From an uncultured virus (IMG/VR IMGVR_UViG_3300005588_000005) (Duplodnaviria > Heunggongvirae > Uroviricota > Caudoviricetes): a stretch of 64,000 bases of DNA. The translations under genes were made by a program, and so were the position numbers. Location of the stretch: the IMG/VR virus record IMGVR_UViG_3300005588_000005; one strand, given 5' to 3'. Under the pieces are notes generated by a model. The model saw nothing but the letters and a program-made list of their open reading frames with translations. It was not told the origin of the DNA and searched no databases. Positions 9,734-53,723 of this stretch are shown in pieces. Every line of letters starts with the position of its first letter. Position 1 is the first letter of the stretch.

Positions 9734-9907
9734 TTTGTGTTACTCCGAGAAAGCTCGCTGGGACTGATGATTGCGACTTGGCAATCCAAATGCAAGAGAT
9801 TTCCGCACAATAATTTCCCGGGTGAACGTGGGTCAACGTCCTGATACAACATAATTTCGTCGCCCACTGGGCAAAAGCGGTAAGGTACCCAACAGGGGCA
9901 TTCAAAG

Positions 9908-10273
9908 ATGGACGATTTTCTAGCATCCTTCACATCGGAGCATTTCCATGCGGTCCTATTTTTCGTTGTTGCAGCAGGCGCCGGTTTTTCTCGTACACTT
10001 CGCCAAGTTCGCTACAAGTCTCTTTGGAATCTTCTTGGCCTTGTGGGTTGCTCCGGGTTTCTCAGCCTCATCTGCATTTCTGGTCTGTCTTACATTGACC
10101 CTGATATCACTTCTCAGCTTGTTCCTGGTATCGGCGTGGCGTCGGCTGCCGGGCTGATGGGGAAGGAATTGGAACGGTTCCTACATTCCATCTTCGACTC
10201 TGTGTTGGCCAAATTACTCAAGAAAATCGGGTTCGATGTCAAAGACTATGACGACACCAAAGAAATCAATTAA
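9908..10273 (+). CDS. Holin-like membrane protein
   Basis: 121 aa, three hydrophobic segments, charged C-terminus. Confidence 0.55.
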   Translation: MDDFLASFTSEHFHAVLFFVVAAGAGFSRTLRQVRYKSLWNLLGLVGCSGFLSLICISGLSYIDPDITSQLVPGIGVASAAGLMGKELERFLHSIFDSVLAKLLKKIGFDVKDYDDTKEIN

Positions 10274-10532
10274 CGTTGCAATTCTAGTGCTCACTGTAAT
10301 CGGCGGATTGTTCATTTATTCAAACCGGAACAAATCGACCACGTTGGAAGATGGACAAAACACCAACACGGCTTCGATCCAACGATTGAGCACGCAGGTG
10401 AAAGACCTAGACGACAAGGTCCATCTGCTCAATGACAAGTTCGACAAGAACTTCAAAAACGCCAATCCTGGCGATGTCCTGAAAGAACTGAAAAGCTTTC
10501 GGCACGACTGGGAATCCACTGCCAAGCGATAA
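10248..10532 (+). CDS. Single-TM coiled-coil protein (possibly spanin-like)
   Basis: INVAILVLTVIGGLFIY then heptad-like region; overlaps the holin-like gene. Confidence 0.45.
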   Translation: MTTPKKSINVAILVLTVIGGLFIYSNRNKSTTLEDGQNTNTASIQRLSTQVKDLDDKVHLLNDKFDKNFKNANPGDVLKELKSFRHDWESTAKR

Positions 10533-10568
10533 AAAAACCCCCGACGGTCACTGCACCGCCGGGGGTTC
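10530..10568. terminator. Terminator hairpin between convergent genes
   Basis: A-run then AACCCCCGACGGT...ACCGCCGGGGGTT. Confidence 0.7.
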
Positions 10569-10604
10569 ACCCAAGTACTTCTAGCAAAAACGTTGTACCA
10601 CAAG

Positions 10605-11297
10605 CTAGGTTTGCAAGCCAGTGGCGATCGCTTTGACAGCTGCTTTGAGGTCGCTGAGGTCTTTGATCGAACCACTTGCGACGAGTTTGGAAAGTTCCAC
10701 GACAATCGGTGAATACCAACCGTTGTCCCAGTCGGTCGTGTTGTCGCGCGGTCGCTCGGCCAAGACTCGGCGGACAACCTGGTCAATCCGCTTGTCCACT
10801 TCTTCCGGGGTTCCTGTGAACTGGACTCCCATCAAACGCATACCAAGCTTTGCCCTTGTCTGTTCGTCGCCAAGGCCCGTCGAAAGCGATCGACTCAATT
10901 CCTCGAGCGGTTTGAATCCGGCCGGTGGCGGTGGAGGAGGCGGAGGCGTCGGTCCACCAATGTCTGCACCGGTGACCTTCACATACTTGTCGATGTGGTT
11001 CATAGCGAATCCATCCTCTGCATTTCCACCGACACCACTAAGGATCAATCGGTAAACGCCTGCTTTGTCGGGGAACACCATAAGCTTTCCAGGATTCCGT
11101 TCCTGGCATTCGAAAACGTTGTCTTCAAGCTCTCGTGGCTTGATGAAGTAGAACGCCGTGGCGGTCGTTCCTTCTGTTGTGAAGATGGCAATCTTTCCGA
11201 CTTTGATTTCGTCGGGACCGTTGATCACCAGTTTGAATTCGTCGGCAAAAGCACTCGGCGTCGCCAACAGCAGCAGGGTAAGGATCATGTTTCTCAT
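10605..11297 (-). CDS. Exported protein: signal peptide, Ig/PKD-like region, polyproline linker, helical domain
   Basis: MRNMILTLLLLATPSAFA; GGPTPPPPPPPPAG. Confidence 0.75.
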   Translation of the reverse strand: MRNMILTLLLLATPSAFADEFKLVINGPDEIKVGKIAIFTTEGTTATAFYFIKPRELEDNVFECQERNPGKLMVFPDKAGVYRLILSGVGGNAEDGFAMNHIDKYVKVTGADIGGPTPPPPPPPPAGFKPLEELSRSLSTGLGDEQTRAKLGMRLMGVQFTGTPEEVDKRIDQVVRRVLAERPRDNTTDWDNGWYSPIVVELSKLVASGSIKDLSDLKAAVKAIATGLQT

Positions 11298-12355
11298 CAG
11301 AATTGGTAACTCCGCAACAATCGGGGGCCTTTTTGAGCCATGTCCGTCAGCAGCTTTTCAATGTCCGGATAGCCGTATCCGGAGTCACGATCGTATCCGG
11401 GTTTCCCAAGATCGATTCCATAGTCTTTCATCAGGTTAAATACCGGACGAATGTTGCGCCAGTTTGGCGCGCCGGATGCCCGGTGGAGACACAAGACACC
11501 GCCCATCAGGTTTCCCCAGTTGGGAGTTGCCATTGACGTCCCGCTCATCAGACGCATCAGAGTTTGATTCTGGTTGGATGCCGACATAATGTTGACACCA
11601 GCGTCGGCGATCAAAACTTCCCCTCGAGATGAGAACGCAGCGATATTGCGATTCTCGTCGCGAGCCGCGATCGCTGGGAGGTTGGGATCCGCCGCCGGCC
11701 AACCGACACCGCGGTTACCACTGTTGCCGGCAGCAATCGCCGGAATGATGCCTGCTTCGATGCACGCATACAGGGCTTTGATTGTCGGTTCGTGTCGTTG
11801 GTTTCCACCGAGCGACATATTGAGAATGCTGACCTGCAATCCGTCTGATCCTCGCCATTCTCTCGCGTGATTGATACCGTTAAGTATCCAGCTTGATTGC
11901 CCTGAACCTCCATTCGAGAGCACTTTTTCAACGCCGTGCTGGAATCCAACAAACCGGGTGAACCGGCGATTGTTCCCGGCGATCGTCCCACCGACGTGCG
12001 TTCCGTGAGAATTCCCGTCAAAGGCAGATTGCCCAGGAACGTGCGATTCGTGGTACAGAGGCTTGTCGATGATCTGGTGGGGGTTTTCACCCGTGTCGCA
12101 GATCGAAACGACGATCGTGTCGGCGTACGGCGCGATCATATCGTTGATTTCGTCCAGAATCTCGACTGAGGGCTGCTCAGTCTGCCACGAACGGGTTTCT
12201 GCCGCTGCCTGCGACATTTGCACCGCACCGCCTTCCTCGTCGTCTGGTGGCAGGAAAACGGGCGGATCGTCGTCGCTGAAAACGATGTTCGGCTCCGGAT
12301 CTGGTTTCCGGAAGAACTCTTCGTGATCAAAGCCTTCCCAAGTTGCTTGGTACAT
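11297..12355 (-). CDS. Subtilisin-family (S8) serine peptidase
   Basis: Triad motifs ICDTG, HGTHVGG, GTSMATP; NMSLGG, AAGNSG. Confidence 0.93.
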   Translation of the reverse strand: MYQATWEGFDHEEFFRKPDPEPNIVFSDDDPPVFLPPDDEEGGAVQMSQAAAETRSWQTEQPSVEILDEINDMIAPYADTIVVSICDTGENPHQIIDKPLYHESHVPGQSAFDGNSHGTHVGGTIAGNNRRFTRFVGFQHGVEKVLSNGGSGQSSWILNGINHAREWRGSDGLQVSILNMSLGGNQRHEPTIKALYACIEAGIIPAIAAGNSGNRGVGWPAADPNLPAIAARDENRNIAAFSSRGEVLIADAGVNIMSASNQNQTLMRLMSGTSMATPNWGNLMGGVLCLHRASGAPNWRNIRPVFNLMKDYGIDLGKPGYDRDSGYGYPDIEKLLTDMAQKGPRLLRSYQF

Positions 12356-13377
12356 TATTTTGCCGCCAACTGTGATGCGAGATTGAAGGTAGTTGGGACC
12401 GCCGCTGGAACAACGGTGGTTACGAATATCTCAGAATCGCCTGGCGTCTTGTACGATTCCGTCTCGAAACCGTCGATCCCATCGAAATGGTTGTGGAGGT
12501 ACGAAACGATCCGGGCGCCAGGCCGCAAATGCTTCAGACGATCGGTCAAGCGTTCCATCATCGGAGTACCTGGATAATGGAACAGGAACACGACATCGCC
12601 GTCAGAAGCGTTTGTATCCTCAATGTCGCGTTCCATGATCTGGACGTTCTTCAGGTCGCATGTTCGCTCCACGGCCATCTTGAACGTTTCCGGGTTCGAT
12701 TCGACGCCAATGCACATCAGAGCGTACGGTGACGCATACTCGAGTATTCGGCCGTCTCCGCAGCCAAGATCGTACACCACGTCATCCGGACCGATCTGTG
12801 CGAGCGTGACCATCATCTTCGCGTCACCCTCGGGCGTTGGGGCGAAATCCAACGTGATATCGATGATCTCGTCCTTCGCCGCTACAGACTTTGTAGCAAT
12901 CTGAGGTGATGCTACAGACTTTGTAGCGACCGGAACCCACTGGTCGACCCAAACCTTTTCAGTTACCGGTACGTTCCTGAACGTGCAACGGCCGTTGATG
13001 CAACCCGTCTTTATCTGGACCATCTTGGTCCGCTCGACCTGGACCTTCACCAGGCTCATTGCCCCTGAGGACGTTGTCGCCGCTGGAACGGATTGCACCG
13101 GCGGGGCAACTGGCCGCGCGGCAACAGTCGGTCGTGTCGTCAAATACTTGATCGGATGATTTACGCCACCGATTCGGACATAGGAATCACCGCGGTTCAC
13201 CGCTGCCTGTGCAGATTGCAGCATCGGGCAATTCGCGTTGGAACAACAACCGGAGGTCAGAACCCCGTCGGTCGCCACAAAATTGTACGTGGCCTGGCGA
13301 CTACCAAACCAACGTCCCCTTGCAGCGTCGGCCGTCGTCGCGACCAACATCAAAACCACTGCTAACAAAAGCCTCAT
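12355..13377 (-). CDS. Signal-peptide-bearing protein with C-terminal class I SAM methyltransferase domain
   Basis: MRLLLAVVLMLVATTADA; VVYDLGCGDGRIL; LRPGARIVS. Confidence 0.8.
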   Translation of the reverse strand: MRLLLAVVLMLVATTADAARGRWFGSRQATYNFVATDGVLTSGCCSNANCPMLQSAQAAVNRGDSYVRIGGVNHPIKYLTTRPTVAARPVAPPVQSVPAATTSSGAMSLVKVQVERTKMVQIKTGCINGRCTFRNVPVTEKVWVDQWVPVATKSVASPQIATKSVAAKDEIIDITLDFAPTPEGDAKMMVTLAQIGPDDVVYDLGCGDGRILEYASPYALMCIGVESNPETFKMAVERTCDLKNVQIMERDIEDTNASDGDVVFLFHYPGTPMMERLTDRLKHLRPGARIVSYLHNHFDGIDGFETESYKTPGDSEIFVTTVVPAAVPTTFNLASQLAAK

Positions 13378-13380
13378 CGG

Positions 13381-13470
13381 TCACTCCCAAGAAAGTAGGC
13401 AAGAGATGGAAACAACAGCCAACGTGGCTGCGAAGCCCATCCAGTAGTACAGAATCAGAGGGTCATACAT
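13381..13470 (-). CDS. 29-aa single-TM microprotein
   Basis: Hand translation MYDPLILYYWMGFAATLAVVSISCLLSWE; fills the gap in the operon. Confidence 0.5.
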   Translation of the reverse strand: MYDPLILYYWMGFAATLAVVSISCLLSWE

Positions 13471-13477
13471 CGGAAGG

Positions 13478-13978
13478 TTAGAAACTCCCCAGCCATTCAA
13501 GAATTAACGGAAGTAAGATTTTGAGCAATTCCGCCCAAAAGTCTTGATCAATCTTGACCTCCACATCAGACGTTCCATCGTCATTTTCAAGCACGGTATA
13601 TGTGATCGCGCCAGCGTCCATCGCTTTTGCAATCACGCGATCGCATACCGCATCGGCGACAACTGGCCTTCTGAGCTTCGTCAACAATCCAATTTTTCGG
13701 AGGGGCCCGACGTCGCTGGACCTGATCAAGTCGCGAACGTCCTTCATCGCCTTTTCTCGGACGGGACTTTGGTCCGACTCATACGTCTTGGTGAATACCA
13801 GGACATTGGATCCAGTATCGCTCGGTCCAGCCGGATCCGCGATCGGGATCGGCGCCGAATCAGCTTCGAGAGGGGCAGGAGTCTGCGGGGAAATTTGAAT
13901 TTGCGAAAATGCCGTTTCGGACAACATGATGCAAAGAACGACGCCAAGACCCACGGACAACAACTTGTTTTGTCTCAT
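13478..13978 (-). CDS. Exported/membrane protein with amphipathic C-terminus
   Basis: Signal-like N-terminus MRQNKLLSVGLGVVLCIML; ends FWAELLKILLPLILEWLGSF. Confidence 0.7.
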   Translation of the reverse strand: MRQNKLLSVGLGVVLCIMLSETAFSQIQISPQTPAPLEADSAPIPIADPAGPSDTGSNVLVFTKTYESDQSPVREKAMKDVRDLIRSSDVGPLRKIGLLTKLRRPVVADAVCDRVIAKAMDAGAITYTVLENDDGTSDVEVKIDQDFWAELLKILLPLILEWLGSF

Positions 13979-14002
13979 CACAAATACCTTTGTGCACAAA
14001 CG

Positions 14003-14036
14003 AAAAAACGGTCAACGACAACATGCCGTTGACCGT
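14003..14036 (-). terminator. Intrinsic terminator after the ProQ-like gene
   Basis: ACGGTCAACG/CGTTGACCGT followed by T6 on the minus strand. Confidence 0.7.
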
Positions 14037-14073: not shown

Positions 14074-14505
14074 CTATCTACGTTTGCCCTTTCGGAGACT
14101 CTTTGGCGTGTATTCCTGCTCTAGCTTTCCCATTGTGACAGCGGCTTGCTTGGCGTGCTTTTCCTCAACAGGCCCCGACAACTGCTGTTCTATTGAATAC
14201 CGAAACCCCGACTCGGTGATAGATTTCAGGTACTCGTATCGGCCTGTCCACCATCTGAGAAACCGGTCGACCGCCTTGTTCGATGCCTCTGGAAGCTGGG
14301 ATCGGATCTCCCTGTGGACCCCAACGGCCAACGGGGTCGGTTTTTTGGGATCAAACATCGACGGCGCGATCGCCTGCATTACGCAAAGGATTTGCTGTCT
14401 TTCCTGCTTAATCCGCTTTCGCTTTTCCGGTGTCCACCTCCGTGCCTTCTTTTTTTGTTTTGTAGGGGGGCTTTGTTGTTTTCTCACCTGATTTCTCACA
14501 TTCAC
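14074..14505 (-). CDS. ProQ/FinO family RNA chaperone
   Basis: PSMFDPKKPTPLAVGVH...FLRWWT.RYEYL...RY...GPVEEKH.KQA matches the PLKxGI / YL / RxDLxG FinO pattern. Confidence 0.8.
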   Translation of the reverse strand: MNVRNQVRKQQSPPTKQKKKARRWTPEKRKRIKQERQQILCVMQAIAPSMFDPKKPTPLAVGVHREIRSQLPEASNKAVDRFLRWWTGRYEYLKSITESGFRYSIEQQLSGPVEEKHAKQAAVTMGKLEQEYTPKSLRKGKRR

Positions 14506-15102: not shown

Positions 15103-15596
15103 CGCTTTTTTGATGCCTTTAGTGCGAGGTTGAATAAGGTTTCTGTATCGATCTTTGTCGGCTTCTTCAGCCTTGGCGCGACACGCTGATAGATTGGTCG
15201 ATTGTGATCTTCGTCAAACTCGATCAACCCGCAATGTGCTGGAATGTCTTCGACATTGAGCAACCTGACCGGTGTCACGAAATAAAACTGCTTTGGCTTC
15301 GGAATAAATTCCCGTTTCGTCCATTGGCGACTGCTCAAGATCGGTTCGGCTGAGCTATACGCATCGTGTTTAAGTAAACTGCCGGACTTCCAACGACGTT
15401 CGGACTTCAAGAAATCCTTTCTGTAGTCGGCAACAGACGTTTTGATCTCGAATTCGGTCCAAAACAAAGACTTCGTCACCAACACGACGTCGCTCTCCCA
15501 GGTGCTTCCAAGGAGAGTGACGTTGGGAATAACAAAGTTCCCAATCTTTCGTTGGAGATGACGAATCATCTTGTTTTGGATCTCGTTGGCGTCCAT
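15099..15596 (-). CDS. MmcB-like PD-(D/E)xK nuclease
   Basis: WESDVVLV...EFEIKTSVADYRKD...FYFVTP...IPAHCGLI. Confidence 0.7.
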   Translation of the reverse strand: MDANEIQNKMIRHLQRKIGNFVIPNVTLLGSTWESDVVLVTKSLFWTEFEIKTSVADYRKDFLKSERRWKSGSLLKHDAYSSAEPILSSRQWTKREFIPKPKQFYFVTPVRLLNVEDIPAHCGLIEFDEDHNRPIYQRVAPRLKKPTKIDTETLFNLALKASKKR

Positions 15597-15793
15597 CAGT
15601 CAACCTTGATGTACGTGGCTTTCTTGTCGTGGTGTGAAATCACCAGGAAAACGCCATCGTCGCCCTGGAAAGAAGGTGGTCGGTTAGAAACACCGATGAT
15701 CAGACCGTCGTCGTCGGGGATACGCTCCCCGATCAAATCTTCGGCTTCTGCACGGGTCAACGGTTTTCGTTGTGGTTCTTTTACTTCAGACAT
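15596..15793 (-). CDS. Hypothetical protein
   Basis: 65-aa ORF, tightly packed with neighbours. Confidence 0.55.
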   Translation of the reverse strand: MSEVKEPQRKPLTRAEAEDLIGERIPDDDGLIIGVSNRPPSFQGDDGVFLVISHHDKKATYIKVD

Positions 15794-18942: not shown

Positions 18943-19173
18943 TCAGCACCGAAAAATCATGTCTTTATCATGGCCACTGTTGTGAATCGCATTCAACGCG
19001 GCTTGCTCCGACTCATCGCCATGCGTCTTGTCTAGCTCGTGCTTGAACACAAGTGCTAAATGACGCTTGATCGTTTCGCATTGCTTGCGTGTCATCGTGC
19101 CGGGGTGCTCTGAGTCCCCTTCAGTCAGTTCAAAGTGACCTTGCAACCAGTAGCAGAATTCAGAGGCTTTCAT
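18943..19173 (-). CDS. Conserved-looking small phage protein
   Basis: MKASEFCYWLQGHFEL...IKRHLALVFKHE. Confidence 0.75.
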   Translation of the reverse strand: MKASEFCYWLQGHFELTEGDSEHPGTMTRKQCETIKRHLALVFKHELDKTHGDESEQAALNAIHNSGHDKDMIFRC

Positions 19174-19184
19174 ATTACTTCCCT

Positions 19185-19565
19185 AGTTAAAATGCCGCCG
19201 CTCCCCGCGGGCCACGGATCAACACGGCGGCTATCGCAATTGCTTGCCCTGGTCAGCTTGGACAATTCAGGTCGACCAACTCCTATCCGCTCTTGCGGAC
19301 CATTAAATTTCGCGGACTGTCCAACCGCTGAGGCTCAGTCTCTCTCGCTAACACGCCGCTCCAACCCCGGCGCGAGGAATGCGATCTGCCCTAGCCGTAC
19401 GTCCCTTGCTGTTGCGGCGGTACTCGATCGAGTGGCCAACTCGACATTTCCCACACGAGTCCTGTGTCGTCGAGCGGAACGTGCTTCACCTCATGCCATG
19501 AAAGATCTCCTTCATGGGCACCCCACGTCATCACTCGGCGAATGATCCAGACTATGAACACTACG
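19185..19565 (-). ncRNA. Candidate large structured non-coding RNA
   Basis: No sense ORF across ~400 nt; many nested inverted repeats whose mismatches read as G-U on the minus strand. Confidence 0.5.
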
Positions 19566-19580
19566 ATTTCTCACTCAATA

Positions 19581-19769
19581 CTAGCTTTCTTGAACAAGTT
19601 TTGACGTAAGCCAAGACACATTGCTGATACGCCTACCCGGTGGCATCCGCTGGAATGCTTCGTAGGCGATCTTCAGTTCCTTGATTTCGTCACTTGGTTC
19701 AACGTGAATTTCCTTCGCTGGCTCCTTCCAGGCCTTCCGTGGAATCAGCAACACACCGTGGTAACTCAT
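19581..19769 (-). CDS. Hypothetical protein
   Basis: MSYHGVLLIPRK..., start overlaps the upstream stop. Confidence 0.5.
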   Translation of the reverse strand: MSYHGVLLIPRKAWKEPAKEIHVEPSDEIKELKIAYEAFQRMPPGRRISNVSWLTSKLVQES

Positions 19770-20312: not shown

Positions 20313-20451
20313 AAAACGCCCGCCGTGTCGCTTGGCAGTCGGCTGTGCGAGGGCACAAAGACACGACACGACGGGCCTGGATTATTTGGCGAGTTGTTGG
20401 CCGACTGCCGATCAGCGTTGGTGATAATAGCGGGCGGGCTCATGATGTCAA
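20313..20451 (-). promoter_or_regulatory. Sigma70-type promoter followed by an attenuator-like leader
   Basis: TTGACA (20451-20446), 16 bp, TATTAT (20429-20424); terminator 20318-20330/20364-20376; competing 10-bp pair 20334-20343/20400-20409. Confidence 0.65.
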
Positions 20452-20792: not shown

Positions 20793-21064
20793 TATTCGAC
20801 ACAAACGGTAACTTTTCTCTTCCGCCGATCGGCGCCGTCCGAAAATCCACATGGGTTCTCACCTGTTTTCAATTGTTGACTTTTGTACTTGAAAGGGTTG
20901 CTCGTTTCCGGATAGGCGATCCTGCGTCCGGCCATTCGTTTCCACTCCAAGCGGTTTGTTGCAGGGTTCAGATCATCGTAGAAGCAACTCCGACAATAAG
21001 CCGGAATCGCTTCTAGCAGAGCTTGTCGCATGGGACGAGTCACCGCTTTCGGCCGGTTTGTCAT
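20792..21064 (-). CDS. Hypothetical protein
   Basis: 90-aa ORF. Confidence 0.5.
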   Translation of the reverse strand: MTNRPKAVTRPMRQALLEAIPAYCRSCFYDDLNPATNRLEWKRMAGRRIAYPETSNPFKYKSQQLKTGENPCGFSDGADRRKRKVTVCVE

Positions 21065-21362
21065 ACCGGCGAGGATCGCATTTATTCCGTCTGAATCCTG
21101 GGGCGTACCCTACTCCTTGACGGCCGACTTTTGACCAAAGCCCGGAGTTGCTAAAGCACGACTTTGGGAACATCAACCCGTTTACACGCCAACGGGAAGG
21201 CGACTTTTTGTCCGGCGCCCCATGCTCTCGGGACGTGGATCCGGCATTCGTTCCCGCGTTGCTCTCGACAACTTAGACGACAGGGAGACTTGCCGTTGAT
21301 CGGTCGTGTTCAAACAAAAAAACCGCACTCACCCAGCAGGATGAATGCGGCTTAACAGGAAT

Positions 21363-21450
21363 AAAAAAATCCACGTCCGACTGATTGAAGACGTGGATTG
21401 TGTTTTTCGGAGTATTTCAGAAAAACGGTTTGGATCATCGTAATCAGTCT
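21363..21450 (-). promoter_or_regulatory. Terminator whose loop is complementary to upstream sequence
   Basis: AATCCACGTC/GACGTGGATT plus T-run; loop GACTGATT (21379-21386) pairs with AATCAGTC (21442-21449). Confidence 0.55.
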
Positions 21451-21530
21451 GGTTGTAAGGTACTCCACCGGTCCCGATGGAGTCATTTCAGTGATAGGTC
21501 GCCGGCGGAAAACGTTCCACCGACGGCATG

Positions 21531-21559
21531 ACTTTAGAAGCCCGAAAGTTGCGTGTCAA
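21531..21559 (-). promoter_or_regulatory. Sigma70-type promoter for the accessory operon
   Basis: TTGACA, 17 bp, TAAAGT, immediately followed by a GC-rich hairpin (21501-21524). Confidence 0.65.
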
Positions 21560-21570
21560 TGTTTTTGCCC

Positions 21571-21602
21571 AAAAAAAGAACCCGGACAAAACGCCCGGGT
21601 CC
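21571..21602 (-). terminator. Terminator of the virion operon
   Basis: GGACCCGGGCGTTTTGTCCGGGTTCTTTTTTT just after the giant gene. Confidence 0.75.
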
Positions 21603-21628: not shown

Positions 21629-24600
21629 TCATAGCGTGTTTTCCCGGCGAAGTCGCTGGAACAGCTGATACCTTTCCATTTCTGCGGAATGTTCCGCCCA
21701 GGTCTCCTTTTTCGGATCCCACTTCGGTCGTGGCAGCGCTTTTGCGCCATCCTTGTAACGTTTCGTTTCCTTGGCATTCCGGATCGCCTCCTGAATAACC
21801 GGGCTATCGCTGTGTTCCATCAGCCACAACCGGTTTGCCTTGACCATCGCTTCGTATTCACGCAATCGCTGACGCAAGGGCTTTTCATCCGTGTCTTTTG
21901 CCGGAATGTCGTACAACGCAACTGCCGGTTCCGTCATCCTGTTGACCTTCGCCACGAGCATCTTGTGAAGTGGTTCGGGGAGCGGGTCGGTCGTGGTGAA
22001 CGGATTCGGAGAATGTTCCAACGGAGGCCGGCCGAGCGCGTCCCGGGCAATGCCGTTGATGTACGGCTCGTATTCGAACGTCCGGGCGCCACCAGACTCC
22101 TTCGGTTCCACCTTTCGGATACCCGACATGACGCCCTGCGCATCAGAAAGAACGTGGAATCGATGTTCAATCGGGGCGATTTCTTCGGCATACCGCTTGT
22201 TGTACGCCTCCAATTCGGCTTCGTTCTGGGGTTCGCCAAGCTCAGAAGCCTTCAGGTCGATCATCTGCTCTAACCGCGAGGCTTCTTCGTAGACGTCATT
22301 CACCGAACCGGACTGGAAGAATCCTTTGTAAATCGCACGCATCCCGGGAACCACGTCGCGCGGACCGATCTTCCGCTTGGGGACATCCGCCAAATCCTGA
22401 TTCCCCATCTTTTCGCCAATGACGCCGACCGTTCCTTCTGCGAATCGCCCCCAACGTGAATACGCGCCACCGCTGGCCGAATTCATGAAGTGCTCGAATT
22501 GCAGCGGGCTCATCCCGACCGACTTCCCAAGCTGATACCCCGCCTCATCGCTCATTTTCAACGTGTAGGGAGAGGTGCGCAGCGATTTATGCTTCCCCTT
22601 CAGGTAATCCGCCTCGATCGCCCGTTGCCGAAAATGGTCGTAATTCATCCAGACTTCTGCAGCGCCGCGGAGAGGACCGCCGCCGGTGGAGACTTTCCCC
22701 TTCAGGTCCCGAAGCATCGTGTCGGTCAGGTCACTTCCCTTGTCGGCCAATTCAACTTCATACAGTTTTGCGACGGCCGCTTCGATCAGATTGAAGACGA
22801 TGGCGGTGTCCCGGGGCTTCGGGATGGTGATGTCGGTCACACCGTCGGAGCCAAACGTGAAGAATCGGTCCCGGTCATGCGACTCCAATTCCTGGTAATC
22901 CTCGTCGTCGACACGATCCAGGGCATACCAAATAGCCGCTGGAATCATTGCCGTCATGTAGGCGATGGTGTTGAAAAGCTCCTTTTTCCGCTCGGCGGTT
23001 CCCATGTTCTTGATCTGCTTCGCCGTTCGGTAGTGTGCCTGAATCGACGCGTTGAAGAACGGCAAGAAAACGTCGATCACGCGAGCGGTTGACCCGCCAC
23101 GCTTGAAGTTGACGGTCGCTTCGGCGCCGGCACTCATCATTTCTATCCGGATCTGTTCCGGCAGAGCTTTCACCGGCTGCCCTTCGTGAAAAATCTGCTT
23201 GCCTTTGATCGTGTAGCCCTTTGACTTCAGGTACGCCCGCATTTCCGCCAACCGCGGCGGCATGTCGGAGATGGCAATAACGTCCTGCATCCGGTCGACG
23301 ACGTTCATCATCGTTTCTTTCGGGCCGTAAAAGAGCTTTTCGCTCAGCGAACGACGGTGTTTCAGTTTCCGCATTGCACGCCGACGGCCGCGACCGATCG
23401 AATCGATGTCGTATCCGATACGCGATTGCAGGGATCCGCCGCCCTCCTCGTACATTTCAACCAGGAGACTGTTTGTCGGTGCCCATCGATCCATTGGCAA
23501 TCCAACGGATTTCCCGATCTTGTAGACCATCACCGAAAGCAATTCCTCGATCGGTGAAAGGACGGTTTTCGGTCCGACCGTGTACTGACTGCGACTCTGG
23601 AAGGTCAGGTAATCCGAAATCAGGTTGAATAGGCCGAATCCGGAACTCATGTTGACAGCACCAGCGCGGAAGATCTTCGTCGACGCTTTCAGCATGTTCA
23701 GCCACGCCGGAAGGTTCTCACGTCGCATCCCCGTTGCAAGTTCGTAAAGGTTCCTTTCCAGCGAGAACATCCGGTTTTTGCCGTCGCGATCGCGGACAAC
23801 GATCGTTGCCTTCTGCTGGTTCGGAGTCCAGTCCGACCGCCAAAGGGTGATCAGATTCATGATGTCCGGAGTGTTCATCACGACAACATCAGCCATAGAC
23901 CAGAAATCATCGCTCTTTGGATCCAGTCCGTGGCGCTTAGCGAAACTGTCGATCCGTGCCTGGCTCACGTTCGTTCCGAGCCGGATGTCCCGAGCAAACT
24001 TCAGGTCCTCGGCGAATTCCGGGGTGACGATCTTGTTTTCGGTCAGCCCCCGAAGTGCTTCCTCGATCGCAAACGTGAACGATGTGCTTCCTGGGGCGAC
24101 TTCATCACCCCAAACGCCCATGCCTTCAGCACCCAACAAGTTCTGAACCAGAATATCCGACACGCGGTACCGCGCTGCCGAACTGTAGGCTTGCTGAATC
24201 TTCCGCATGAGCGATTCCACCGGGTGCAGAATCGGCCGATCGCTACCCTCGCGTGATCGGGCAAGTAGCGACTTGGGAAGGTTGACGAACGATCGGGCGC
24301 CGGCCTTTTTGAAATCGTCGTCGCTCGCGCGCATCAGCGAGAACATGTTGTCGCCGTAGTACTCCCGGATGTTGTCCGCGTCCTTCTTGGTCAATTCGCC
24401 GGCATCCACACGCATTTCAAGGATGTCGTCAAGGATCTCCGAGATTCGCAAAGCGTACCGGTCGTATTTGGCAACCTCCTCATCACTCAACCCTGCAATG
24501 AAGTCTTTGGCAACTTCCGGATCAATCCCGGAGTTGTACGGGCCTGTGCCTCGCTCCTTCCGCTTTTCCTGCATGAACAACGTGTGTTTCGCGTAGGAAT

Positions 24601-27600
24601 AGGCGATTGCCTTGTCTTCTTCTTCTGCGTTGTCAACGAGCTCCGCCAGGCTGAAAACTCCATGTTTGCCGATGGGCTCGAGAGTCCGGATCGAATGCAA
24701 TCCGTTTTCGAACGCTTTTGACGCATGGCTTCCGGCACTCATCAGGTAGACCAAGTAGGCCTGTTCGATGCCAACCCCCTCGTATCCCTTTTTCTTCGCA
24801 AACCGCTCGATGTCCTTCAGGACGCGGGATTCGTCGACAAATTCACGAATTCCGTTGAAGGAGATTTGGCCAAACCGCTCCCGGGCCCGTTGCCAGCGAT
24901 CCAGGTCCTGACCCGTCCGGCCGACCTGCGAGAGGATTTGATCTTCGGGCGTCATCCGATCGTATTGTCGAACGTGCTGAATCGCCTGTGCCATCGCAGG
25001 TCCGAACACCGGATGGGTCAACACTTCGTCGTGAACCCATGCGATTGCCTTGGCGTGCGAAGCGCCTTCGGTGTGCGTCCCGGTGAGGATGTGCCGGAAT
25101 GCTTCGGCGATCCCTTCGGAAACGTCACCACCATCACGACTGGCTTTGCGGGTGTTGTCATAATCCAGGTCTTTTAACTGGGTCAGAACGATAGAATGTC
25201 CGATCGGGTCGACGCGACGGAAAGCCCGCAGTCTCGCGCGAAGGTCCATTTTCCGATCGATGTGGTGGGCGATCTCGTGTGAATCAACCAACAGATCCAA
25301 GTTATTGGATTCCCGGAGTCGAACGATTTCAGGTGCAATCCGACCATCGATCGATTTGTACGTTCCCAGCGTCTTGCGTTTTGTTTTGCCAGAACGCATC
25401 GGAACGTCGAATAACCGGTGCCACGTTTTGACGATGTCACCGCGGCGGATGATATTCGCCTTTCGGGCGTTTTTCGGCATCGGCCCCAGTTTCCGACGCT
25501 TAGCGTTGATCATCTGCTCGGCGTAATCGTTGGACCGGTTCTTCGGCCGGTTCACTTCGATGATCGCGTGACCGTTCTCCATCAAGTGATTGAGAACGGG
25601 CGTCGGGTTGTCCATCGGAATGAAATACCTCGTCCGGTATCCGATTCGTCGTGAGAACACGCCTGTCGGCTGCAATACGGTGAAATCGCTGTCGGTGGGC
25701 CCTTCCAGTTCCATCATCTGTTCGCCTTCAACAGACGACATCCGGACCTTCCACCCGCCGGCGAGCTTCAGGTTCCCGCCGCGACCAACGATTGCAGCTG
25801 CTTCGCCCGCGTCCATTTGCGGACCGTCGTACGTCATCCCCAGGTTCGCGAGGGTGTCGGAAAGATCTTCTTGGTCGATGACCCGTCCTAGAATCTGCTC
25901 GCCATCCTCAGTCAGAGCCCGTTTGATCTTCGGGTTTGAATCGGGAAGGTTGTTCCAGACCGGAAGCAACGCGCCGGTGATCAGGTGCATTTCCTTTTCG
26001 ACAAAACCAGGATGCTTCTCTACCTCCGCATTCCACAGGGCAGCCCCTTCTTGTTGTGAGACTTCCCGCCAGTTGTCCGTGTTCTTGTAGTTGTCGAGCT
26101 TGGACAAACGCTGGCTTTCTACTCCCGATTGCCGTCCCATCGGATGGTATCGCCCTGCGGAGTCTTGAACGGTTGCCTTGGCGTCCGACACCAGGAACAC
26201 TTTGCCGGTTTTCTTGCTGACGAAGTATCCAAACAAGTCCTTCCCGTAATTCTTCTGGGCGACGTCCAGCGATCGGACAGAGACGGGTTCTTTGACGCTG
26301 ATTACAACGTGTTTGGTGATCGCTCCGGTCGAATGGACGTTTGCGACTTCTTCGGAAACCTTCTTGGTTCCAACCGATCGGATCGTTTCCAGCCCTTGGT
26401 CCAGCGTATCGTTTGCGATCGCGGCTTCGACGATCTCGTTCAACCGACGGTCGAATTCTTCGAACAGGACGGCCTGTTCCGATGTCCTCAGGTTGAGAAG
26501 ACGGTTCAGGAACTTTTCCATGTTCGGCATTGACGACAACGCCGAGCCTTCCTTGTTGACGATCTTGAATCCCATGCGGTTTTCAAAGTAGTCCGGATCA
26601 ATACCCTCAATCTTGCCGTCAATCGAATCCTCGAACAATTGACGGAGCGCCCGAGTGGCTTCCGTGCTTTCCAAGTTGTCTTTCGCTGCGAAGACGCCCG
26701 AGTCGCCGGCCTGTCGCTGACCCTTCGTCAACGCGCCAAGCTGGGAGAGACGGCGCGCGATGGTCGAAACAAACCGCTTGTACCCATGCAAGTTGGGTTC
26801 CATCAGTCGCAGGATAGGCGCCGACGACTGGTTCGATCGGTGACCACGCCCAAGACCCTGGACCGCAATGTCCGCTCGCCAACCCGCTTGAAACAGGTAA
26901 TGCGATCGCTGCTGCTGGTTCTCCTTAGTTCGGTCGGCATGGTAGCTGGCACCGGTCCCGCCGGCTTCGCTGAAGATAAGAATCCGTTTCTTACCGTTCA
27001 TGAAGTCCTCTTTGTCCTTTCCGGTGGCATTCTTACCACGTTTCTCCACAGCCACCTCGCCGTTCTTGTCTACCAGACGTTGGCGACGACCAGTAATCTC
27101 GGCGACGTTCTTGGCTCCGAAATGGTTGATGATCTCGTCCAGCGCCGACCGGTTGCTGATCGGTAGCCTGGAAACACGATCGATTAACGCGTCACGCATC
27201 GCCACCGCGCGAGGGTCGACGATTTTTTTCCCGGTCTCCCGATCCAGTGCCGGCCGGGTCTGCTCGTTCCCGTTGTCATCGGTGAAAGTCTCGTGAACGT
27301 GGATCGGGAACGCCTTTTCGAGCAATTCGATTAGGACGTAGGCAGGAGACACGTCGACGTCTTCCAGCGATTGATCCTTTTTCAATCGCGACATCGCTCG
27401 TTCGGTTGCCGCCTCGCCGGTCGACGTCAATTGGATCAAAACGGACTTGTCATTCTTCATATCCGTTTCGATGTTCTTGATCAGAGTCGGAACCATCATC
27501 GACATGACAACGGAATTCCAGAACCGCTGATTTTTAGACCAGAATTGCGACATGATGAACGAACGGCCGTTGGTGTTGTTCGTCAGTTCCAACGCTTCTT

Positions 27601-39609: not shown

Positions 39610-40245
39610 TTATTTTTCCCTGGCCTTCTGAGACTTCTTTGACAGCGCCTTTTCTACTGTCCAGCCTGAAGAAATACGCATGGAAATAGTGTCGGCTGGA
39701 ATCCCGGTAATTTCCGACCATTCCACCAAGGTTTTTGATTCATTTCCATGCTTTATTACCTTGGAACTTCTGCGGTTTCTGGCCTGCTCAGTCCTCGTTG
39801 CCCATCGGCAATTTTCTTTGGAATACCCGCTTTCGTTATTAATCCGATCAATACTGTGATCAGAAGAGGGGCGTTCACCCATGTCTTCAATGAAGTTCTT
39901 GAAAGAATTCCACCTTTCACAAACCCTTATTCCCCGACCTCCATAGTCACCAAAGTGATGGTTGTTCGGGTTGTTGCATCGGTTCCTCATTGCAACCCAG
40001 ATTTTGTATTCGGGTGTTTTGCTAAATGCCTTCTTCGATTTCTTTACACACCCGCAACTCTCAGACCCTCCGCTTCTGAGACCGCTTGCAAAAACAACCC
40101 TCTTGCTTCCGCAATCACAGAGGACAAACCATTTAAGAGCGTAGCCCTTTTTTCCAGCAAACCCTACTACTGTTTGTTGGCCAAATCTCTTTCCAGAAAG
40201 GTCTGTGATGTTTTTGGGAGTAGGGATAGGATATTCACCAGCCAT
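39610..40245 (-). CDS. Free-standing HNH homing endonuclease
   Basis: DLSGKRFG, CDCG, SCGC, YGGRGIRVCERW, SIDRINN..GY..ENCRWAT; visibly more AT-rich than flanks. Confidence 0.9.
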   Translation of the reverse strand: MAGEYPIPTPKNITDLSGKRFGQQTVVGFAGKKGYALKWFVLCDCGSKRVVFASGLRSGGSESCGCVKKSKKAFSKTPEYKIWVAMRNRCNNPNNHHFGDYGGRGIRVCERWNSFKNFIEDMGERPSSDHSIDRINNESGYSKENCRWATRTEQARNRRSSKVIKHGNESKTLVEWSEITGIPADTISMRISSGWTVEKALSKKSQKAREK

Positions 40246-49460: not shown

Positions 49461-50348
49461 TTAGGCCAACATGAGTGAGTCAAAGGGTATAGCTTCCCGT
49501 TTTTTCAATTCGTCGTCCAATTGAATATCGGCACGCTTGGATCCAGCAGACCGGAGGAACACCCCTTCGTGCGTTTCATCTCCTTCGCGGAAGTAAATTG
49601 GGGTGTTTTTCTTGACCGTTGTCCACTTCGTTTTCCGAGACTCCTCCAAAAACATGTCTCTGCTATCAACGTTGTGACCGCCAATTTCCTCGCCGGCGGC
49701 AAAGCTGGACGCTGGTTTCGGTGTTTCAGGCTCCTTTTCTGGTTCCTCAGCAACCGGATCGGGCTTCGACTTGCCCTTGGGTGACGCTCTCTTCTTGGCC
49801 GATCGCCCAGTTTTCTTTTTTGTCGACCGACCGCCCTTGCTGGGAGACTTCCGCGGCGTTTTCGTCATCTTTGGTGCCGGTTCGTCGTCTTCTTCCACCT
49901 CTTCGATAGGCGGAGGTGGAGTCGGCGTGTCGTCTTCGGTCGGCAGTCTGACGTCGATCGCCCGGTATTCGTCCACTCGCCCGAATCGCTCAATCGCCAG
50001 AATCCCGGCCTGAACAATCCCTTGGTAGGTCGCCATCGACATAATCCACAACCCTTTTTGGCGTACCTGAACCGGCGTCCCGGTCGGAACGGTGTGCCAG
50101 TCAATCTCCATCCGCTCCTCATCCTTTCGGATTTCCTTGCCGACTTCGCAGCTGTAATCAAGGAACCGAAGCATGTCGATCAGGGCTAGCGGGCCCAGCG
50201 GACCGCCAGGCCCGTGCCGGTGATAGAGGGTGATCCGGATGCCGTATTCCTCCTGAATGTCGTCAGGAATGATGGAAATGCCAAGCATTTGCTGGATCAG
50301 GAGTTCGTCGTCGGGCACCATGATTGTCTGTTCCTTGGGAAATTGCAT
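49461..50348 (-). CDS. Hypothetical protein: two SH3-like regions joined by a charged linker
   Basis: DWHTVPTGTPVQV and KWTTVKKNTPIYF repeats. Confidence 0.6.
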   Translation of the reverse strand: MQFPKEQTIMVPDDELLIQQMLGISIIPDDIQEEYGIRITLYHRHGPGGPLGPLALIDMLRFLDYSCEVGKEIRKDEERMEIDWHTVPTGTPVQVRQKGLWIMSMATYQGIVQAGILAIERFGRVDEYRAIDVRLPTEDDTPTPPPPIEEVEEDDEPAPKMTKTPRKSPSKGGRSTKKKTGRSAKKRASPKGKSKPDPVAEEPEKEPETPKPASSFAAGEEIGGHNVDSRDMFLEESRKTKWTTVKKNTPIYFREGDETHEGVFLRSAGSKRADIQLDDELKKREAIPFDSLMLA

Positions 50349-50349
50349 G

Positions 50350-50393
50350 AAAAAACGCCAGTACGTCAGGAACAGATTGAACGTACTGGCGCT
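50350..50393 (-). terminator. Terminator after the capsid/decoration genes
   Basis: CGCCAGTACGT/ACGTACTGGCG plus T-run. Confidence 0.75.
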
Positions 50394-50425
50394 GAAAAGC
50401 AAGACTGGGAAATGAAACCCCGTCG

Positions 50426-51292
50426 TTACCCTGCCTGGTAGAACGCCCAGAGATCCAGCAAAAAGTTCTGCGGATCGGCGTCGGCTGAGTTCTTGATCGC
50501 CGCGTACATGGCGAGTTCTTCACCATCGGGGAAAGTCGCAGCGGCAATGTTGTCGGCCGTGACGTAAGACTGTTGCTCGACGTTGTCGACAAAGATCTTG
50601 ATTCGCTTCGATGCGACCGCAGCCGGATCGTAAACGAATCCAACGTTGTACCACGTATCGGCAGCCAAAGCCGTTCCGTACGTCATCACCGTCTGCAGCA
50701 CGCCGCCGTTCTTGCGATACAAGAATTTCAACGCGTCGTTGTCGTCCTCGCCAATGAAGAATCCAATCAAGTCGTCATCGCTGACAACGTGACCGGACGA
50801 GTCGGCGATCGGCGTTGCAGCAGCAGCCAACGCTTCTTCGCCAAGACCGAGGAAGATCGAACCGTCGCCGTTGGTCACACTGTTGAGCTTGAATCGGTAT
50901 TCGCAGATCAACAATCGCGGATCCGAATCACTGATCACGCCCATCACGCCACTGTTCCCGTTAGTCGCGAGAACCGTATTGTGGTTGTCACCGTCGGCGG
51001 CGTCGTTCGACGTCAGCAGCTGAATCGCACTTGGCTCCGTTGCGATTTGCTTGATAGCCCCAACCGTGGCATCCGCTTCGATGTAAGCAAAGTACCCATT
51101 CGGAGGCTGAAGCTGGCCGGCCGCTGTCGTAACCGTCAGGTTCGGAAAGGAATCGAAGTCATCGTACAAGAAGACTCCGGGATTTCGCCCGTCCGGCGTC
51201 ATCATGTGCTCAACAAGTCGTGACCACAGCCGGGGGCTTAGTTTGCCGCCTCGTTGCGAAGCGTGAGGCGCCATTAAGTTACCAGGAAACAT
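50426..51292 (-). CDS. Putative capsid decoration/minor head protein
   Basis: YDDF N-terminal motif, lectin-like beta sandwich; follows the capsid gene. Confidence 0.55.
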   Translation of the reverse strand: MFPGNLMAPHASQRGGKLSPRLWSRLVEHMMTPDGRNPGVFLYDDFDSFPNLTVTTAAGQLQPPNGYFAYIEADATVGAIKQIATEPSAIQLLTSNDAADGDNHNTVLATNGNSGVMGVISDSDPRLLICEYRFKLNSVTNGDGSIFLGLGEEALAAAATPIADSSGHVVSDDDLIGFFIGEDDNDALKFLYRKNGGVLQTVMTYGTALAADTWYNVGFVYDPAAVASKRIKIFVDNVEQQSYVTADNIAAATFPDGEELAMYAAIKNSADADPQNFLLDLWAFYQAG

Positions 51293-51355: not shown

Positions 51356-52399
51356 TTAAGCCTTCGATCCGACGAACAGCGCCCGACGGTTGTAGCAGAT
51401 GTAATTCATCCACGTATCGTAGTGGACGGTTCGCATCGTGTGCTGAGTGTGGCCCGGCGACATCATCGGCTTGGACCGACGGTTGTTTCGGCCCTTGTGC
51501 ACGAACGGTCGGAACCAACGCCAGTTGATACCGTAAACCGGATCGCTGGTGTCGTTCGCTTCCAAGAACGGAACCCAAGTCAACGGAACGCCGCCGATCA
51601 CGACTTTGCCGATGTACCTGGCAACGTCGTTTCCGAGGTTGTCGTTCCGGGTTTCGGCCAACCGCTCCAACGCATCCTGAACGCGGTAGGTCGAATACAT
51701 GGATTGCATCGACTTGCCGTAGCCAAGTTCCGGGTGGGGGACCGGAGCGCGGAAGTGGGTGAACGCCAACGACTTCTTGACTTTCTTGACGAAGTCCAGT
51801 GGCGCGACGGTGTCGTAACCAAAGGTCCAGTTACGCCACCGCGGATAGTCGATGCTGCTCACGCCGCCACAACCGGCAGAGAATCCGGATGGGTTTCCAC
51901 CGTGGAAGCCACCGCCGGGAGTCGTGGTCGCATCCTTCTGCATCCAGTACGGAACGCCGAATGGACGGTCGTCGCTCGGGCCCGTCGGGGCGGACCACAG
52001 GTTTTCCTCGTTCAGTTCGGCGAGGTCCGACAAACAGTCGTGCTCTCGCATCTTCATCTCATCGATGATCATTTCCCGTTCGGACTGGAAAATGGGTTCG
52101 TCGACGTCGTACGAGAAGTTGGTCGTTTGCTTACGCCACGGAACGGTGCACTCAATCGACACGTCAATCACACGAGCAACGTCTTGAGCAAAAAACCCAA
52201 CGTTACGGGCGTTCCCCGTGTTTTGTGTCTTCAACTTGAAGTTGATGTCTTTGCCGCCTTGTTCCTTCACCGACTTGTCGTTGATGATGGTGTTGGCGAC
52301 GTATTCTTGGTGCTCAAGAGAGATGTCGGTCCAACTGCGTCGCTTGAAAAGCGACAGAGTCAGATTCATCAGGTCGTGAACTTGGTCAGGGTACAACAT
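51356..52399 (-). CDS. Major capsid protein
   Basis: ~347 aa after the scaffold; GGKDI, VPWR, GGVSSIDYPRWRN, GGVPLTWVP. Confidence 0.75.
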   Translation of the reverse strand: MLYPDQVHDLMNLTLSLFKRRSWTDISLEHQEYVANTIINDKSVKEQGGKDINFKLKTQNTGNARNVGFFAQDVARVIDVSIECTVPWRKQTTNFSYDVDEPIFQSEREMIIDEMKMREHDCLSDLAELNEENLWSAPTGPSDDRPFGVPYWMQKDATTTPGGGFHGGNPSGFSAGCGGVSSIDYPRWRNWTFGYDTVAPLDFVKKVKKSLAFTHFRAPVPHPELGYGKSMQSMYSTYRVQDALERLAETRNDNLGNDVARYIGKVVIGGVPLTWVPFLEANDTSDPVYGINWRWFRPFVHKGRNNRRSKPMMSPGHTQHTMRTVHYDTWMNYICYNRRALFVGSKA

Positions 52400-52493
52400 T
52401 GAAAGTCTCGCCTGTGAGAGGAATTTGGCGGCAACCAAAGCCGCGTCACTCCCTAAATCTGACCAGTTCTGAAATCCGTCTCAACTCAAAAAT

Positions 52494-53723
52494 TTAGTCC
52501 TGGTTGTTCTCGCGGTTGAACCGGGCCCAAAGTTTCTTCATTTGAGGTGAGTTTGCGATGTCCGAAGGATTGTCGCTTTGCACCGGCGGAGCCTGCCTCG
52601 TGGACGTCCTTCCGCTGACTCCCGACGGCCGGCGTCGACGGCTTTGCGACTGAATTTCCCGTGTTTTGCCGGTTTGGTTCGCAACTCGCGGCGTTGTCCC
52701 AACCTCGCCAAACACCACGTTCACAGCCCGCTTTGCCAGCTGCGCAACGGAAATGTTTCGTTGCCCCTGCTTTTCCAGGGCGTCGTACATGCTGGCCATC
52801 TTGCTCAGAACCATTTGGCGGTTTGCCGTATGAAGGCCTCCGAGATCCTGGTTCACCGAACCGTTTTTGCCGACGACGCGACCGAAAGTGTTCTGATCCA
52901 TCCCGTCGAGCGATTGGTGGAATTCGATTAAAACGCGGTCAGTTTCCTGTTGCTTGCGAATCTCATCCTCCTGTTGCCGACGAGCCGCTTCACGCTCCCG
53001 TTCTTCGATGATCAGATTGTGCTGTTCCGCCATCATAATGTCGTCTTCTGAATAGTTTTCCTCCTTCATCTTCGCGATGTCGCGTTTCTTGAACTTCGGG
53101 GTATCGCTTTGCTCTGTCTGCTCAGGCTGTTGTTGCGGAGAGTTCTCCGGTCGGTATCCGGGCAAAAGCGGGTTGTTCGTCCGCGGCGCCGGTTGCTGGA
53201 ATTGTTGGTAACCGGGTCCGCCGGCGGCTGTGAGGTTCTGGTCGTACATCCGACCAAACCGGTCCAACTCTTCTCGACTCGACAGGTCTTTGATGTCGTC
53301 TTCCGAAAGACCGTAGCTTTTCGCGAATTCAATCGTGTCCGGATCCTCGTACCACTTGGCAGCATCCGGATCGTCATCGTCAAGTTCTTCGTCGTCAAAC
53401 TCGTCGATCGAGGAACCCCGCTCGTCGTAGAAGTCCGATCCAGTGTCATCGCTAGCCGACCAACCGTCCTCGGGAGCGTAGTCCTTTTCGTCTCGGTCCC
53501 CGGTGTCGTTGGAGGCACTGGTACGGCGGAGAGGTTCATCGTCAAGGTCGTCGTCGCCTTCGTATTGTTCAGGCTGAGGAGCGGCCGACGGTCGTCGCGC
53601 GCCGGGCGGCGGATCCTGCGAACCTGGAAGTTTGCCGTTGGGTAGCGATGAAGCCCCATCGTCACCGAAGTCGGCTTTTGCGCGAGCGATTTGAGCGGGG
53701 GTAAGGCTGATTGATCGGGCCAT
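52494..53723 (-). CDS. Putative scaffolding protein
   Basis: Very acidic N-half, helical C-half; between portal and capsid. Confidence 0.65.
   Translation of the reverse strand: MARSISLTPAQIARAKADFGDDGASSLPNGKLPGSQDPPPGARRPSAAPQPEQYEGDDDLDDEPLRRTSASNDTGDRDEKDYAPEDGWSASDDTGSDFYDERGSSIDEFDDEELDDDDPDAAKWYEDPDTIEFAKSYGLSEDDIKDLSSREELDRFGRMYDQNLTAAGGPGYQQFQQPAPRTNNPLLPGYRPENSPQQQPEQTEQSDTPKFKKRDIAKMKEENYSEDDIMMAEQHNLIIEEREREAARRQQEDEIRKQQETDRVLIEFHQSLDGMDQNTFGRVVGKNGSVNQDLGGLHTANRQMVLSKMASMYDALEKQGQRNISVAQLAKRAVNVVFGEVGTTPRVANQTGKTREIQSQSRRRRPSGVSGRTSTRQAPPVQSDNPSDIANSPQMKKLWARFNRENNQD

Follow-up and report, generated by a model that had tools for sequence, protein, structure and literature searches.

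A gene-free stretch in the accessory operon of an uncultured tailed phage: a candidate orphan structured RNA of about 380 nt

On its minus strand, the accessory operon of an uncultured tailed phage contains a real gap of 407 nt (19174-19580) that carries no gene, is odd in composition, is predicted to fold into a moderately well-defined shape and matches no known RNA family. The reading that we favor, at a probability of roughly 0.35, is that the gap specifies an orphan structured RNA of ~380 nt that would be cut from the operon transcript and would act by binding protein. Incidental folding is about as likely as a free RNA: a foreign spacer or a small gene with fortuitous stems, taken jointly, is a substantial if still minority possibility. 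We regard the candidate as a fair lead to what may be a new phage RNA, and not as a demonstrated one.

The window, that is, the whole stretch of 64,000 nucleotides that was analysed, covers positions 1-64000 of a virus record that is complete at 72,131 bp and has direct terminal repeats. The phage is tailed, with a podovirus-type capsid protein (51356-52438) as well as portal, adaptor and terminase proteins, and the style of its genes allows the guess that its host belongs to the Planctomycetota. The capsid protein has many relatives, unlike the product of the adjoining 409-aa gene directly upstream (52494-53723, minus strand), for which none was found among the best 8000 candidates. Short minus-strand accessory genes form a block between the gene of a giant 3845-aa helicase/LPD38 protein, which ends at 21629, and the recombination genes. 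The gap lies in this block, flanked on the same strand by an upstream 62-aa gene without a family match (19581-19769) and a downstream 76-aa, phrog_28500-like gene (18943-19184), both of which are in the protein collection. Two promoter-like sites are aimed into the block, at 21559-21531 and 20451-20424. The second, a putative sigma-70-like promoter on the minus strand (a consensus match only, at 11 of 12 positions), is ~860 nt upstream of the gap and is the likely source of an operon transcript running through it; between 20451 and 18263, no minus-strand terminator was called except a weak one at 20220-20205.

Within the same block and on the same strand, 4.7 kb downstream of the gap, lies a gene for a 143-aa ProQ/FinO-family RNA chaperone (14074-14505; PF04352, E 6.9e-13, 49 bits against a cut-off of 27). 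Outside the window, the minus strand also encodes a CsrA-like protein whose acidic tail is 40 residues long (68673-68942; 53 bits, below the 70-bit cut-off), so that two RNA-binding global regulators are found in one phage. Two other features of this part of the genome may be recorded. A subtilase, a methyltransferase with a signal peptide-like start and a third exported-looking protein make up a small minus-strand cluster (11297-13999). At 9934-10600 there are two small genes, one of them membrane-like, which apparently occupy the plus strand, against the minus-strand block; they come after a strong terminator (10568-10535) and point towards a minus-strand promoter-like site at 9836.

The original prediction singled out this stretch as gene-poor in a gene-packed region, and that much is real: both flanks are called proteins, and the tested sense ORFs of the gap are uncalled. 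Its statement that there is no sense ORF stands for called genes and falls for reading frames as such, a 56-codon ORF with a GTG start being present on the minus strand at 19561-19391. Five of the six frames scored in the gap, sense and antisense, are negative for the codon usage of the phage (-0.10 to -0.26), as is the long antisense ORF; the called genes nearby score mostly positive. Three of the genome's 42 CTAG sites fall at the ends and in the middle of the gap (19183, 19391 and 19581), and two of these are stop codons.

The candidate RNA (19188-19567, minus strand, its ends placed from the fold) is predicted to form a multibranch structure followed by a 3' hairpin. An 8-bp closing helix, in which 19560-19567 pairs with 19233-19240 (p 0.89-0.93), would enclose a multibranch domain of ~335 nt; the 3' strand of this helix has an alternative partner in 19380-19385, the pairing proposed originally. 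From its 5' side, the domain comprises a short hairpin with G-U pairs at 19530-19546 (p 0.72 on the minus strand, 0.0 on the plus strand), a two-tier stem-loop at 19478-19529 in which ACGTG/CACGT encloses CCATGAA/TTCATGG (p 0.95 and 0.85), a CTCGAC/GTCGAG stem-loop at 19439-19475 (p 0.75), a weakly predicted central arm at 19332-19438 (z -0.62, with a firm 6-bp helix, 19414-19419/19354-19359), and the best-folded arm, at 19250-19332, a long interrupted stem with a TCCGC/GCGGA hairpin cap at 19285-19300 (p 0.95-1.0). This last arm, whose ends were chosen after the fold had been seen, has a z of -2.89, with one of 200 shuffles as good. Next comes a G+C-rich 3' hairpin (19188-19231; p 1.0, z -2.65, three of 200 shuffles as good), which is followed by a short run of four U and drew no call as an intrinsic terminator; the 3' 145 nt of the candidate RNA have a z of -2.15. 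Every stem motif claimed in the original prediction is present at or beside its given position, and the choice of the minus strand as the better one is borne out by the claimed helices, seven of nine reaching a p of at least 0.7 there, as against four of nine on the plus strand. Two elements of the proposed architecture are lost: ATCGCA/TGCGAT and the CTCGC/GCGAG nested within it both have p 0.0 in the full minus-strand ensemble, and GCCGCCG/CGGCGGC, taken to be the closing helix, makes a local 3' hairpin instead (19194-19231).

What does not hold up is the epithet "highly structured", in the sense of stability in excess of shuffled sequence, the lack of which heads the refutations that the original prediction set for itself. 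The minimum free energy of the minus strand has a z of -1.19, or of -1.40 (14 of 150 shuffles as good), or of -0.95 with slightly wider ends; the genome mean is -0.89, and 30 of 95 genome windows of the same length have a z of -1.19 or below. Watson-Crick helices of at least 6 bp number seven in the gap, compared with a mean of 7.9 (128 of 189 windows reach seven). The plus strand folds slightly better (z -1.79 to -2.05) and its ensemble diversity is equalled by only one of 150 shuffles, the better plus-strand fold counting against a strand-specific RNA, just as the ordinary energy of the whole region, the average helix counts and the absence of any diverged copy count against a structured RNA. 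On its own, folding energy is a poor guide for telling many real RNAs from background, so that an ordinary z removes the "highly" and does not exclude an RNA. The only excess over chance appears to be in how well defined the minus-strand fold is: its predicted ensemble diversity is 41.6 as against 91.8 +/- 27.2 in shuffles (two of 150 as low), and only three of 144 genome windows have so low a diversity, with four of 144 having as many pairs of p >0.8. This definition is carried by the 3' half. Since the ends were picked after seeing the fold and these are several tests among many, the real significance is lower. Coding windows of the same genome at 15385-15765, 25265-25645 and 50345-50725 have stronger z values than the gap (-5.4, -4.2 and -4.1, on 10 shuffles each).

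The uncalled ORFs, the negative codon scores, the odd composition (discussed below), the defined ensemble, the upstream promoter-like site and the ProQ gene together speak for an orphan structured RNA, and its making and use might be pictured as follows. An accessory-operon message starting at the promoter-like site at 20451 would run through the gap, and the gap segment would fold into one multibranch structure. Processing would then free an RNA of ~380 nt ending in the G+C-rich hairpin, which, together with the closing helix, would protect it. The most likely job of the freed RNA would be that of a protein-binding scaffold or decoy during infection, for which the phage's own ProQ may be the natural partner. 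ProQ is put forward because the ligands of FinO/ProQ proteins present a helix that runs out into a single-stranded 3' tail, and because some processed phage RNAs that lack a terminator are among these ligands (both from PMC9977716). The proposed link between ProQ and this RNA is one of common strand and region alone, and the same genome offers several better, terminator-type potential ProQ ligands, among them those at 14008-14036 and 21320-21353. No dedicated promoter or terminator was called at the ends of the candidate RNA, and its predicted fold changes once the 5' part is removed. A bolder version strikes us as quite improbable: the RNA, at ~380 nt, would represent a new phage class without kinship to GOLLD or ROOL, would assemble with the ProQ of the phage into a ribonucleoprotein, and would join it and the CsrA-like protein in a self-contained kit for rewiring the host post-transcriptionally.

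Two other RNA-like sites of the same genome deserve mention in their own right. At 21290-21600 on the minus strand, behind the terminator of the giant gene, a strong promoter-like site (21559-21531) is accompanied by a pair of short ORFs and by two hairpins with U runs. One of the hairpins was called (21353-21320); the other, spotted by eye immediately upstream of it, overlaps the last part of a 44-codon ORF. This region is a candidate for a small RNA or an attenuated leader. At 20860-21250, also on the minus strand, lies a second stretch without a convincing gene, with a near-perfect 17-bp hairpin at ~20975-21020, a whole-region z of -1.0 and nothing over the cut-off in Rfam.

The possibility that weighs most against an orphan RNA is that the gap is a functionless or recently acquired spacer of foreign or decayed DNA, passively transcribed, with stems typical of G-rich DNA of 58% G+C; we consider it doubtful overall, yet a real contender. 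Ordinary folding energy and helix counts are what it would lead one to expect, as are the lack of a relative in the searches made and the largely orphan accessory genes around the gap, and the composition of the gap lends itself to the same reading. In a fourth-order Markov model, the 381-nt window at 19031-19411 has the lowest score in the whole genome, and that of the candidate itself ranks among the lowest 0.45% (the genome's other long stretch without translation, at 20.8-21.6 kb, scores +0.01 to +0.09). A window within an HNH gene (39610-40245) that is probably foreign scores about as low and, the model being dominated by coding DNA, the signal says "non-coding or foreign" and not "RNA". 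The minus strand of the gap has 34% G and 24% C, as expected from helices rich in G-U pairs. Palindromes of 6 and 8 bases show no enrichment, 26% and 9% of windows having at least as many; for those of 4 bases only 1.2% of windows are as high. Against a mere spacer stand the well-defined ensemble, the firm helices marking both ends of the candidate, which come within a few bases of the upstream stop codon and the downstream ribosome-binding site, and the lack of repeats, terminal or tandem, such as a mobile element would have. Gaps of this kind are also rare in the genome: there are only five others of at least 200 nt without a 55-codon sense ORF, and most of those lie at promoters, terminators or strand switches.

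The search for relatives yielded identical copies only. Two contigs of IMG/VR match over 1200 nt at 100% identity, and two marine-sediment DNA runs, which may be the source of the phage record, have no differing letter within the gap; no RNA run was among those listed for the phage. In blastn searches, the best E values among 50,697 phage records were 0.5 for the whole gap and 0.1 for its halves, and there was no match in 72,556 plasmids. A search of 401 Pseudomonadota genomes gave none at E 0.001; one 20-base match came from a set of 101, and a genome-collection scan with a protein query gave one weak match. Three exact seeds of 15-16 bases hit 105, 27 and 16 loci in IMG/VR, where nothing but the two identical contigs extended past the seed. 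With six degenerate patterns drawn from the antisense frame, two of 28 stretches in IMG/VR were confirmed, both being the identical contigs, and none of 594 in metagenomes; by this translated search the antisense ORF has no diverged relative. Single-sequence covariance models (R1 and R2) matched only the window itself in 455 kb and 28 further records.

A 16-base seed gave at least 117 metagenome loci from 20 of 64 parts (~390 expected), of which 117 were scored with R1. The best R1 match among the matches listed, L359, reached 25.4 bits with the seed included; its apparent compensatory change was rejected, the locus being a cluster of nested palindromic repeats that has nothing but the seed in common with the gap. 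(That cluster, at L359:70-300 behind a stop codon, has a z of -12.3, looks like REP/BIME elements by eye and matches no Rfam family over the cut-off.) Another seed locus, L332, was rejected as a coding region. Among phages related through the capsid protein (31-70% identity), 16 of 18 loci and 47 of another 50 (these taken from 61 new ones) were searched, giving only chance matches of 14-19 bases; these 63 records are mostly fragments, with nine at least 90% complete. Upstream of four diverged relatives of the 76-aa gene there is no similar sequence. (In a phage with a relative of this gene, L005:2600-2980 has, upstream of that relative, a 50-base motif that occurs twice between small genes and is perhaps a repeated promoter or recombination site.)

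The neighboring accessory genes are largely orphan too: of 22 accessory ORFs, only that of YqaJ has a match in any of seven capsid-related phage records, and in a wider set only two of 24 do (YqaJ and the giant protein). Because the phage is an orphan across its accessory region generally, the missing relatives say little against function. Rare RNA classes, moreover, escape comparative screens for want of diverse copies (PMC5737381, in part). No description of such an RNA was found in the literature, the supplementary candidates of PMC10690425 being covered in part.

The sense ORF at 19561-19391 gives rise to two further explanations. According to the first, which we hold to be unlikely, the gap is a translation-coupled attenuator: the 56-codon ORF would encode a leader peptide, and the position of the ribosome would set read-through or translation downstream. 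Its stop codon sits in a segment (19380-19397) that is predicted to be able to pair with 19228-19238, opening the 3' hairpin, an inverted repeat joining 19228-19238 and 19387-19397. In the full-length prediction this hairpin has p 1.0; it is lost without the first 165 nt, a removal that mimics a ribosome stalled at the Pro-Pro-Gln-Gln-Gln codons, and deleting the stop-codon segment as well restores it in the minimum-energy fold, a modeled pattern of on, off, on. It also lies 10 nt ahead of the purine-rich ribosome-binding site of the 76-aa gene (19178-19184). Should this be correct, a ribosome-sensing switch would operate in the middle of a phage operon. The hairpin is, however, missing from the centroid of the fold without the stop-codon segment, and it is followed by only four U, without a terminator call, in a phage that has several terminators with long U runs; the truncated folds are no better than those of shuffles (z -0.33 to -0.90), and the ORF has no relative. 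It is the weak U run and the poorly defined truncated folds that keep our estimate low. Fifty-six codons are, in addition, long for a leader peptide.

The second explanation, less probable still, is that the ORF is simply a small orphan gene for a 56-aa protein and that the other 217 nt are either a further tiny ORF or a leader of the usual kind. It is on the sense strand, its start is 19 nt beyond the upstream stop with a purine-rich stretch ahead, and its stop-to-stop frame has a codon score of 0.004, which is neutral, above the other frames of the gap and close to two weak neighboring genes. It is nevertheless uncalled in any assembly. Its product has no candidate relative among 5.8 billion proteins and no match in the Atlas (recognition 1306), and two matches among 1.84 billion representatives were set aside because their scores add up over tandem repeats, no single stretch giving more than 10.7 bits. 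Nor would a small gene account for the 3' half, which is the best-folded part.

That the gap belongs to a known class (group I-like ribozyme, RNase P RNA, tmRNA or riboswitch), as a member that has diverged strongly or been circularly permuted, is very improbable and already largely refuted. By eye, 19549-19554/19336-19341 could make a short pairing that would resemble, in reversed order, the guanosine-binding helix of group I; its p is 0.00, and there is no room for the adjoining core helices. The group I model (RF00028) has no match in the whole genome. Both flanking ORFs are intact, and the relatives of the 76-aa protein begin at the same residue as it does. The original prediction's failure to place the candidate as tRNA, tmRNA or RNase P has been confirmed and extended to any Rfam family by covariance-model and ARAGORN searches. 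Rfam gave no match at gathering scores over the whole genome and none at E 10 in the gap alone (one chance match, at E 9.7, is outside the gap), the RNase P model with its conserved P4 regions had no match, and ARAGORN found no tRNA or tmRNA in 1-64000 or 62000-72131. Likenesses noticed by eye to motifs of group I, RNase P and tmRNA, and of TPP and cobalamin riboswitches and CRISPR repeats, were dropped after the empty Rfam search. That the antisense ORF (19135-19545, plus strand), whose conservation as protein the original prediction had named among its refutations, is a protein gene is barely credible: it is open over 136 codons and a 117-aa form of it has a single gene call, on a contig of 2.5 kb, and we judge it spurious because its codon score of -0.26 is the lowest of 29 frames scored, it has an identical copy only and no family or relative, and it would be a lone plus-strand frame in a minus-strand block.

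By the features tested, then, the favored orphan RNA is not GOLLD, ROOL, tmRNA, RNase P or group I, and it is instructive to set it beside the systems that it most resembles. The trp-type attenuators share the placement of an ORF stop within a segment that has two pairing partners and a G+C-rich hairpin before the next gene, with three states in the predictions; they differ in the long leader ORF here, the weak U run, the mid-operon location in a phage, the unknown function of the genes downstream of the hairpin and the lack of an Rfam leader match. The CsrB-type sponge RNAs that titrate CsrA are similar in length to the candidate, and the phage encodes its CsrA-like protein (under the cut-off, as noted above). 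Unlike CsrB and RsmY, the candidate is not enriched in GGA motifs (10 in 381 nt of the gap, compared with a genome mean of 9.0 +/- 3.4), which makes a CsrA sponge unlikely.

GOLLD and ROOL are large multibranch non-coding RNAs of phages, of unknown function, larger than ~380 nt and often near tRNA genes (PMC12286853 and PMC5737381, each in part). Broadly speaking, the candidate would be one more RNA of this sort. Kinship with either of the two, which the original prediction cited as known phage RNAs, is not supported: their models (RF02032, with its conserved 3' region, and RF03087) have no match in the whole genome, although no control passed the cut-off either, and where GOLLD and ROOL often lie near tRNAs this genome has none. 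ROOL averages 581 nt, with six junctions and three pseudoknots in ~580 nt, and GOLLD often exceeds 800 nt, while the gap here has only 407 nt; both are widespread, and the candidate was not found outside its own phage in the searches made. Large structured RNAs of bacteria and phages are few, and several of those known are ribozymes or RNA-only cages, so that a new class, if this is one, would be worth a structure.

The FinO/ProQ ligands provide the remaining comparison. FinP, Inc and RocR are far shorter than ~380 nt; the candidate, unlike FinP-type RNAs, is not antisense to its own genome (the best internal match is 13 nt) and, unlike these named ligands, is not adjacent to the gene of its presumptive chaperone. 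What it shares with them and with processed phage sRNAs is that its mobile genome also carries a FinO-domain gene and that the predicted fold has a 3' helix with a short single-stranded tail. If the favored reading of an orphan structured RNA is right, the phage itself would supply a candidate protein partner, something that GOLLD and ROOL lack, and this would make the function of the RNA testable in vitro.
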